This document shows, one piece after another, positions 3,698 to 21,600 of a stretch of DNA of 47,111 bases (the first letter of the stretch is position 1; every line of letters starts with the position of its first letter). Origin of the DNA: a virus. Taxonomy: Duplodnaviria > Caudoviricetes. The notes below the pieces were generated by a model. It was not told the origin of the DNA and searched no databases. It worked only from the letters and a program-made list of their open reading frames with translations. Where the stretch lies: positions 1 through 47,111 of the IMG/VR virus record IMGVR_UViG_3300033148_002673; one strand, 5' to 3'. A program made the translations under genes and the position numbers.

Positions 3698-4149
3698 GTG
3701 ATATTAAAGAAAAGTTCACGCCAGAGACGCATCAAACAGCATGCGGTGAAAAGTGGCTAATCATGGATATTGATTTAGGCGTATCAATGGAAATGATTAT
3801 TAAAACAAAAGAGCCAAGCTGCTCCGGTGATTTTATCTTATGGATAGACGGTAAAGGCCATGCCAGAAATAGAGGTGGACACCACTGGGAGAGTTACGAC
3901 CTAATCCCCATAACCCACAAGCCAGTAGACCTGCCCACTGATCTTCGTGATGAGATTAAGTATGTGGCTATGGAGTGTGGCGGAATCTGGTATGGGTACT
4001 CCGCCATGCCGGAAACAGGCACAACATTAAAATGGAGGTTTGGAAACAGGGCGTGGGCGATTATGTGCCACAACATACCAAAAGACCATGCGGGGTGGGA
4101 GAACAGCCTGCATATCAGGACTAAGGATGGATGGGAGAGAGCGCTATGA
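3694..4149 (+). CDS. Hypothetical protein
   Basis: ORF coupled by ATGA overlaps on both sides. Confidence 0.75.
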   Translation: MSDIKEKFTPETHQTACGEKWLIMDIDLGVSMEMIIKTKEPSCSGDFILWIDGKGHARNRGGHHWESYDLIPITHKPVDLPTDLRDEIKYVAMECGGIWYGYSAMPETGTTLKWRFGNRAWAIMCHNIPKDHAGWENSLHIRTKDGWERAL

Positions 4150-19591: not shown

Positions 19592-19620
19592 TTGACAGAA
19601 CCACTATCAAAGACTACATT
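19592..19620 (+). promoter_or_regulatory. sigma70 promoter of rtcB
   Basis: TTGACA-17-TACATT. Confidence 0.75.
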
Positions 19621-19627
19621 CACAGTC

Positions 19628-19731
19628 ATGACGTGAGACTCATAACAGGTAGACTTTATACAAAACCCTTCTTATCCCTTGGTTCCGCTACCGGAAGTCT
19701 CACCCAGGAGAGTAGAGGGGTTTTCTATTTT
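19628..19731 (+). promoter_or_regulatory. Structured rtcB leader with mini-ORF (putative attenuator)
   Basis: ATG ACG TGA at predicted TSS; GTGAGACT/AGTCTCAC and GGTAG/CTACC pairings compete with the AAAACCCTTCT/AGAGGGGTTTT hairpin and T-rich tail. Confidence 0.6.
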
Positions 19732-19741
19732 GGAGATGGCA

Positions 19742-20976: not shown

Positions 20977-21005
20977 TTGACATTGATAATATCAAAGACT
21001 ATATT
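20977..21005 (+). promoter_or_regulatory. sigma70 promoter of the tRNA operon
   Basis: TTGACA-17-TATATT; spacer contains palindrome TTGATA-A-TATCAA. Confidence 0.8.
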
Positions 21006-21011
21006 GAGCGC

Positions 21012-21071
21012 ATGAAATTTATTTGCCCAAGTTATCTATCGTTACTCCCACCCAAGAGATTGGAGGTCTAA
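21012..21071 (+). CDS. Putative attenuator leader peptide MKFICPSYLSLLPPKRLEV
   Basis: ATG 6 nt after the -10 box; codons CCA, CTA, TTA, CTC, CCA, CCC, TTG; stop overlaps the antiterminator strand. Confidence 0.75.
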   Translation: MKFICPSYLSLLPPKRLEV

Positions 21072-21099
21072 TTGCGTAGATAATAAAGTAAGCAATAAG

Positions 21100-21133
21100 A
21101 AGCCTCCACATCGAAAGATTTGGGGGTTTTTTT
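21100..21133 (+). terminator. Attenuator terminator (3:4 hairpin)
   Basis: AAGCCTCCA-C-ATC-GAAA-GAT-T-TGGGGGTTTTTTT. Confidence 0.85.
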
Positions 21134-21148
21134 ATGAGTATAAATAGG

Positions 21149-21222
21149 CTGGGTGTAGCTCAGCTTGGTAGAGTAGCTGCTTTGGAAGCAGGCGGTCGCT
21201 GGTTCAAATCCAGCCATCCAGA
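21149..21222 (+). tRNA. tRNA-Pro(TGG)
   Basis: Acceptor CTGGGTG/CATCCAG, D-arm GCTC/GAGT, loop TT-TGG-AA, T-arm GCTGG-TTCAAAT-CCAGC, C1-G72 and A73; CCA not encoded. Confidence 0.92.
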
Positions 21223-21236
21223 CCTATTTATATTTT

Positions 21237-21314
21237 GCTCCTCTAGGCTAATTGGCAACAGCCACAGAACTTAAAATTCTGTGTTTCTCAGTTCGACTCT
21301 GAGGGGGAGCACCA
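21237..21314 (+). tRNA. tRNA-Leu(TAA), short variable loop
   Basis: Acceptor GCTCCTC/GGGGAGC, stem CAGAA/TTCTG, loop CT-TAA-AA, T-arm CTCAG-TTCGACT-CTGAG, ACCA end. Confidence 0.9.
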
Positions 21315-21320
21315 GACAAT

Positions 21321-21403
21321 GCGCGGGTGACTAATGTAAATTGGCACAGCTACCAGATTTAGAATCTGGGTCTTTGTGGGTTCGAGTCCCACCCTGCGTA
21401 CCA
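21321..21403 (+). tRNA. tRNA-Leu(TAG), atypical D-arm, short variable loop
   Basis: Acceptor GCGCGGG/CCTGCGT, stem CCAGA/TCTGG, loop TT-TAG-AA, T-arm GTGGG-TTCGAGT-CCCAC, ACCA end. Confidence 0.8.
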
Positions 21404-21424
21404 TTTTCATGATCGCATGCGGTG

Positions 21425-21454
21425 TTGACATCTTATTCTGCATGCTCTTATACT
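21425..21454 (+). promoter_or_regulatory. sigma70 promoter of the capsid operon
   Basis: TTGACA-18-TATACT. Confidence 0.7.
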
Positions 21455-21600
21455 TAGGCAACCGAAATAAGACCCCGGAAGACGGCGAAGCGGCCCCTAT
21501 CAAGGCTAACCCGCAATCAACCATCAGATGGCTAACTCGAAGTAGGTATTGGTGATCTGGCATAGCCAGGTTCTATATTATATTTTTTGAGGACATTCTG

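Follow-up and report, generated by a model that had tools for sequence, protein, structure and literature searches.

Attenuation has long been known as a means of controlling amino-acid genes, typified by the multivalent attenuators of the enterobacterial amino-acid operons, thrL and ilvL, and further by trpL, hisL and leuL. The pheST attenuator of Escherichia coli, with its pheM leader, is a chromosomal element that answers to one amino acid and controls a synthetase. The mechanism of trp attenuation has been described (PMC4007540), and the same source predicts leaderless attenuator peptides in Deinococcus deserti, with the AUG as the first bases of the transcript, ahead of synthetase and biosynthesis genes. 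For tRNA genes, no description of leader-peptide attenuation was found in a full-text literature search, most subscription journals being outside its scope. Accessory tRNA genes are under another form of control in Anabaena PCC 7120, where the silent trn operon of the TrcR regulon is co-regulated with rtcB, has promoter motifs in common with it and is induced on impaired translation (PMC8421152; PMC10272220). The repressor in charge acts at repeats that overlie the -10 box, and the control is not codon-specific; the text of PMC8421152 contains neither ‘attenuat’ nor ‘leader’. In phages, the supply of tRNA is known to counter tRNA-cleaving defence, as with the T5-like tRNA-Tyr and retron Eco7 (PMC11555353), and anticodon-loop changes in phage tRNAs have been described against such defences (PMC10264068); ‘attenuat’ is absent from both of these texts. 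Schlafen nucleases are treated elsewhere (PMC13462974).

The window considered here, by which is meant the whole stretch of 47,111 bases that was analysed, is a linear virus record of about 91% completeness. It carries terminase, head-tail adaptor, and major head and tail genes, a set that by our own reading suggests a podovirus type. An insert separates the capsid gene from a cluster of small genes and is composed, in order, of a promoter, rtcB, a second promoter, a leader and three tRNA genes (Table 1). As judged from sequence comparison and fold models, the leader is very probably a multivalent leader-peptide attenuator gating the phage tRNA genes, and it is likely that tRNA loss is the working signal of this attenuator. 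That the trigger is specifically one of counter-defence is put forward tentatively, as a proposal that at its strongest is evenly balanced.

Like the enterobacterial leaders, the element combines a short ORF bearing control codons, an antiterminator and a terminator that are mutually exclusive, and a stop codon on the 5' strand of the antiterminator; this stop (21069-71) lies on segment 2, within the 5' strand of the 2:3 helix, as the preliminary description had claimed and as is seen in amino-acid operon leaders. It differs from them in gating tRNA genes rather than biosynthetic enzymes, and the phage leaders sample as many as seven tRNA species, each by one or two codons, are often leaderless, have a weak 1:2 helix and are predicted to read through in the untranslated state. 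The leader would work like the thr and ilv attenuators, yet it is no member of those leader families: Rfam gave no match to an amino-acid leader family at the gathering score or at E<=5, and none to a T-box riboswitch. As in pheST, attenuation would feed back on the supply of charged tRNA and not on amino-acid synthesis, but the products of the phage unit are the tRNAs themselves. A leaderless attenuator start, predicted in both, is shared with the D. deserti peptides, whereas those do not precede tRNA genes in the account cited. The Anabaena trn operon is likewise a set of accessory tRNA genes linked to rtcB by promoters of common sequence, and induction on impaired translation would be common to both; phage tRNAs of counter-defence are likewise phage-encoded replacements for tRNAs destroyed in the host; in the accounts cited, however, the latter are described as a strong-promoter supply or resistant variants and not as a demand-driven switch.

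Table 1. Features of the rtcB-tRNA insert and its right-hand neighbour, in window coordinates
Feature	Position	Strand	Basis or remark
sigma70-type rtcB promoter	19592..19620	+	twin of the tRNA promoter
rtcB leader	19628..19732	+	two-codon ORF (Met-Thr-stop), then long terminator-like hairpin with T tract
rtcB, tRNA/RNA repair ligase, 405 aa	19742..20959	+	PHROG 1075, E 7e-111
sigma70-type promoter of the leader-tRNA unit	20977..21005	+	TTGACA-17-TATATT, 11/12 matches
leader peptide ORF, 19 codons, MKFICPSYLSLLPPKRLEV	21012..21071	+	ORF; homologous peptides; synonymous conservation; ribosome walk
helix 1:2, predicted, weakly supported	21031..21084	+	in full-length minimum-energy fold; z -1.8
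helix 2:3, antiterminator, predicted	21058..21112	+	-16.0 kcal/mol, z -4.3
helix 3:4, intrinsic terminator with T tract, predicted	21100..21133	+	z -4.0; covariation
tRNA-Pro(UGG), A at position 37	21149..21224	+	ARAGORN, Rfam
tRNA-Leu(UAA), 5-nt variable loop, CCA encoded	21237..21314	+	ARAGORN, Rfam
tRNA-Leu(UAG), enlarged D-arm, 6-nt variable loop, A37, CCA encoded	21321..21403	+	below Rfam cut-off
major capsid gene promoter	21425..21454	+	sequence pattern; homology to related phages restarts here

The promoter, the ATG in leaderless position, the 19-codon ORF and the codons listed in the preliminary description were all found at the positions given there. The ATG at 21012 lies 6 nt past the -10 box and opens 19 sense codons, among them CCA (21027), CTA (21036), TTA (21042), CCA (21048) and TTG (21060). 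With transcription expected to start near 21011-21012, the ORF is probably leaderless, and initiation would be of the leaderless kind. In three of the five other leaders described below the ATG also follows a -10-like box by 6-7 nt, while both leaders of one phage, G001, carry Shine-Dalgarno-like sequences. Ordinary promoter-like sites are equally common in shuffled sequence. The control block comprises codons 5-13 (Cys Pro Ser Tyr Leu Ser Leu Leu Pro), and the control zone further contains TGC, AGT, TAT, TCG and CTC. When the bases of the leader were shuffled, an ATG at +5 to +7 with an ORF of 14-28 codons arose in 332 of 20,000 cases, and in 7 of 20,000 such an ORF also served all three tRNAs within codons 2-13.

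The three tRNA genes are likewise present as first placed, with the caveat that tRNA-Leu(UAG) is atypical and scores only 26 bits in Rfam, where the cut-off is 29 (E 0.0045). The record holds no further tRNA at Rfam E<=0.1, and so no supported Ser, Tyr or Cys tRNA; under very relaxed settings ARAGORN made 18 calls across the window, some of them resembling Tyr, Ser and Cys tRNAs, to which Rfam lends no support. In bacteria, Leu tRNAs are long-armed, and a methylated G37 is carried by Pro and Leu(UAG) tRNAs. The Leu tRNAs of the leader cassettes have variable loops of 5-6 bases, the UAA ones having been selected by the search pattern. In tRNA-Pro, position 37 is A in each of the five genomes that have an intact leader and G beside the decayed leaders of L370 and L446, and A37 occurs in 20 of the 65 distinct tRNA-Pro(UGG) of the comparison set; common descent could account for this pattern. 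In the viral collection, tRNA-Leu(UAA/UAG) with a short variable arm and an encoded CCA is common, being estimated at about 3,200 stretches.

Six leaders in five genomes have in common the ORF, the antiterminator, the terminator and the tRNA run that follows. A pattern for short-armed tRNA-Leu matched 124 viral loci in 3 of the 64 parts of the collection, and a screen of 183 run starts (182 and the window) led to L342, where a related leader precedes Pro, Leu, Leu, Ser and Ser tRNAs. A pattern built on the leader matched 12 loci, one of which was real (L349/G001, the same phage as L342); the other 11 were set aside as being without tRNAs. In G001, leader 1 precedes tRNAs for Pro, Leu(UAA), Leu(UAG), Ser(UGA), Ser(GCU), Cys and Tyr. 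Leader 2 lies in the same tRNA array (L349, minus strand 2276-2417) and has no sequence kinship to leader 1; it is rich in Gln, Trp, Asn, Phe, Thr, Glu and Met codons and, with its own terminator, precedes tRNAs for Glu, Thr, Asn, Trp, Phe, Met and Gln. Pro-Leu(UAA) tandems were also sought by pattern, with no leader sequence used; three scans returned 56, 28 and 12 loci, and these 96 contained 55 true tandems, 36 of them distinct and 20 with free upstream DNA. An intact leader and terminator were present in four of these 20 runs (L365/L452, L385, which is G001, L422 and L424). Two more, L370 and L381, have kept the ORF and antiterminator with the terminator 3' arm and T tract missing, and apparently represent a constitutive derivative. 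The remaining 14 runs, including the Pro-Leu-Leu runs L415 and L447, have no leader, and none was matched among cultured phages or plasmids.

In a hand-aligned core of seven codons, the window and L424 have six of seven residues identical, five of them with a different codon, and the other five pairs have 4-5 residues in common, 1-4 of which are synonymous. The keeping of residues through synonymous change argues for translation of the leader and against strict tuning to single codons.

Other candidates were not accepted. The stop codon of L264 lies past the hairpin, and 2 of its 15 codons are matched; L255, ahead of tRNA-Ser/Leu/Leu, has a Leu- and Ser-rich ORF of 16 codons led by a Shine-Dalgarno sequence, with 8 of 15 codons matched, and a hairpin without a T tract; and L274 and L281/L295 were also rejected. 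In L281 and L295, ahead of tRNA-Ile(UAU), a common non-coding motif of about 60 bases is followed by a strong terminator and is unrelated to the leader. In L447, the Pro-Leu-Leu run stands behind a long T-tailed hairpin with alternative pairing, 5' of tRNA-Pro and with no leader ORF.

The match of leader codons to the anticodons downstream was evaluated in a control window set by the folds, under strict and relaxed wobble and against uniform, phage-usage and composition nulls. With relaxed wobble, the leaders match their own tRNA sets at 11/14 codons (G001-1), 10/14 (G001-2), 11/14 (L365), 13/15 (L424), 6/12 (L422) and 4/11 (the window), and with strict wobble at 11, 10, 9, 11, 5 and 3, respectively. 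The first four have P <=2e-3 under all three nulls and L422 has P 0.003-0.02, the last with an extra tRNA-Gln and Gln codons in its leader. The other two reading frames give 1-7 matches of 12-15. The homologues thereby support the prediction that leader codons co-vary with the anticodons behind them. Taken alone with its three own tRNAs, the window gives P 0.02-0.09 depending on the null, a match that is suggestive at best. The earlier statement that these tRNAs ‘decode exactly’ the leader codons goes too far, as they read only 3-4 of 11 control codons, and TTG is outside the sensing zone. Read by the seven-tRNA set of G001-1, the window leader has 8 of 11 codons matched, with codons 5-12 read consecutively. 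Rather than being tuned to exactly three isoacceptors, the leader samples a block of Pro/Leu/Ser/Tyr/Cys codons. Sensing of Pro-Pro (EF-P) as the conserved signal was discarded, since the homologues have no Pro-Pro pair.

In a screen of 346 tRNA-run starts, 152 had a short ORF and 14 an ORF with a terminator, and the combination of ORF, terminator and a match at P<0.005 was found at four starts, as compared to a mean of 0.12 (maximum 1) in 300 permutations. These counts refer to loci picked with Leu-tRNA or leader patterns, in which the Pro/Leu leaders are relatives and not independent trials and two of the four top matches belong to one phage. When the terminator condition was dropped, six starts were found, compared to a mean of 1.21 (maximum 5).

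Three alternative helices had been proposed for the leader, and two of these stand well apart from chance. Neither the 2:3 helix nor the 3:4 terminator (21100-21135; -14.2, z -4.0) was equalled in stability by any of 200 shuffles, whereas the 1:2 fold (21012-21099; -15.5, z -1.8) was equalled by 13 of 200 and does not clearly exceed chance. The CTCC/GGAG pairing assigned to it is absent from the minimum-energy 1:2 fold, and across the six leaders the z of this helix ranges from -0.1 to -2.3. Across an alignment of six leaders the terminator stem is 88% paired, and three of seven pairs have changed on both sides, a covariation that 7 of 500 shuffles reached; in this alignment L365 and L452 are near-identical and G001-1 is one column out of register. 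The antiterminator is preserved among leaders of differing sequence and register.

In the ribosome-walk models, a ribosome was advanced codon by codon on a transcript ending in the terminator loop, and the probability of upstream capture of the terminator's 5' arm was read out. For the window, an A site on codons 2-13 gives a probability of about 0.9, one on codon 14 gives 0.65 and one on codons 15-20 gives 0.02-0.22, or, under a wider definition of the arm, 0.63-0.83, 0.45 and 0.04-0.16. The TTG at codon 17 lies on segment 2 and cannot act as a control codon, because a stall there is modelled to favour termination (antiterminator probability 0.05-0.08). In the models of all six leaders the antiterminator is gated by ribosome position and exclusive of the terminator. 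In the models, the switch coincides with the end of the matching block in L365 (0.99 to 0.03), L424 (0.75 to 0.41 to 0.21), the window (0.83 to 0.07) and likewise G001-1; in G001-2 it comes one codon ahead of the last matching codon, and L422 is less clean. Among 150 shuffles each, an equally large switch occurred in 2 (window), 2 (G001-1), 4 (G001-2), 0 (L365), 3 (L424) and 6 (L422). The 5' arm is sequestered with a probability of 0.71 at the leader terminator and of 0.58, 0.33 and 0.21 at three other terminators of the window; with an unrelated terminator reaching 0.58, folding alone is therefore modest evidence.

Taken together, the layout, codons and folds of the homologues support the attenuator reading. 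In the mechanism proposed, RNA polymerase would enter the tRNA genes only when decoding of the Pro/Leu/Ser/Tyr/Cys block is slow, most likely from those tRNAs being cleaved or exhausted in the course of infection. A ribosome held on codons 2-13 would leave segment 2 free to capture the 5' arm of the terminator and so allow read-through, and one at codon 15 or beyond would cover segment 2 and lead to termination; complete loss of translation may open the switch too. A larger ancestral array, Pro-Leu-Leu-Ser-Ser-Cys-Tyr, is the plausible source of the leader; with only the first three genes of that array retained in this phage, the leader would go on sampling four tRNA species that are no longer encoded. 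The neighbouring rtcB, with its twin promoter, may supply repair beside replacement.

The likeness of the two promoters is close: TTGACA and the last 10 spacer bases are identical, and the -10 boxes are one base apart. A pattern allowing up to three mismatches has two matches in the window where none is expected, the pattern having been derived from both sites. The two promoters have a 16-base stretch in common that may reflect mere duplication or be an operator. Of the 18 viral loci matched by the pattern, none was a promoter-leader by inspection. The assignment of RtcB is in keeping with PF01139, found on the query and on its listed homologues; these homologues yielded no host assignment. 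The ATG of the rtcB leader lies 7 nt past the -10 box, and a second switch there is possible but unsupported, the alternative fold having a z of -1.2 and the hairpin 5' arm a sequestration of 0.09; this type of leader was not seen 5' of rtcB in L081-L085. In L083, a divergent tRNA-Pro(UGG) (3886-3963) stands directly 5' of another phage rtcB.

A more far-reaching proposal, offered tentatively and with less than even confidence, is that the whole rtcB-leader-tRNA insert constitutes a demand-driven repair-and-replace counter-defence. The leader codons may then list the host tRNAs destroyed by a nuclease, namely Leu, Ser, Tyr, Pro and Cys in this lineage and Glu/Thr/Asn/Trp/Phe/Gln in the second module, and the phage tRNAs may have been reshaped to escape it through the short arm of Leu and the A37 of Pro and Leu-UAG. 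The counter-defence trigger, first put forward in the preliminary description, remains an inference that gains from the rtcB and twin promoter next door and loses from RtcB not having been found in the G001 record, in loci L224-L465 or with any other leader. The reasons for which phages carry tRNAs, and the identity of the host tRNAs that become limiting in infection, have been debated for decades, mostly by codon statistics. A switch read by the ribosome would be the phage's own statement of the tRNAs that it expects to lose, one that a simple reporter can test, and if the proposal is true, the leader sequences of phages could be used to predict which tRNAs are attacked by unknown anti-tRNA defences. 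Attenuation would be extended to a direct feedback in which a shortage of tRNA switches tRNA genes on, and compact multi-tRNA sensors would be on offer for the detection of tRNA-cleaving immunity.

An alternative that differs in the trigger only, and that is possible though rather less than likely, is a codon-sensing attenuator set off by amino-acid starvation or by plain codon demand late in infection, and not by a host defence that destroys tRNA. The unit lies directly 5' of the capsid gene, no nuclease was identified, and classical attenuators sense uncharged tRNA (textbook knowledge; also PMC4007540), all of which this alternative accommodates. Extra tRNA would presumably not cure a lack of amino acids, however, and the phage does not use TTA, CTA and CCA heavily (8.1, 8.4 and 13.9 per 1000, respectively, in 8,349 codons), and the adjoining gene, for a tRNA ligase, has a twin promoter.

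The attenuator may also read general failure of translation, be it a lack of initiation or any early stall, with the identity of the codons incidental. The preliminary description had called for folding with and without ribosome masking: in the models a stall on codons 2-13 frees the antiterminator, and the untranslated RNA does so too, at 0.47-0.98 in the no-ribosome models of the six leaders. Because the untranslated transcript favours the 2:3 helix, a role of 1:2 as ‘protector’ is not established, and translation arrest may open the switch. Any stall on codons 2-13 gives identical output in the models, the window's own codon match is weak, and the Anabaena tRNA operon and rtcB answer to general translational stress (PMC8421152). 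This account is nonetheless unlikely, given that leader composition follows the set of tRNAs gated, across disjoint sets in one phage: the codons of G001-1 are read by the set of G001-2 at 1/14, and those of G001-2 by the set of G001-1 at 0-1/14. The matches also end at the switch point, with 0/5 codons matching beyond it in L365 and L424.

The closest relative, L001, with 96% capsid identity, has a different gene in place of the rtcB-tRNA insert, and homology with related phages picks up again at about 21423-21425, the right edge of the insert. The leader or tRNAs were matched in none of 80 loci with related capsid genes, several of which have short upstream flanks, and a tyrosine integrase was not found in the record. 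It is conceivable, but improbable, that the leader is left over in this phage from a larger array, its hairpin serving mainly as the rtcB terminator and the tRNAs being made by leak-through or from the rtcB transcript. Four of the seven sampled tRNAs are indeed missing from this record (Rfam E<=0.1; completeness as above), rtcB ends 140 nt ahead of the hairpin, and decayed versions exist in L370/L381. Against this, the promoter, the placing of the ATG and of the stop codon, the open frame, the antiterminator and the terminator are each intact, and leaders without rtcB retain the identical design. A chance ORF ahead of an ordinary terminator, which the commonness of short ORFs (152/346 run starts) might suggest, is very improbable and largely refuted by homologous peptides kept via synonymous changes, the permutation test and the conserved alternative helices.

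Beyond the insert, the 5' leader of the capsid gene contains a block of about 80 bases (window 21461-21541) with 74-89% identity in about ten related phages. It has little structure and no covariation, repeats a GGCTAAC motif twice, and is possibly a protein-binding regulatory site.
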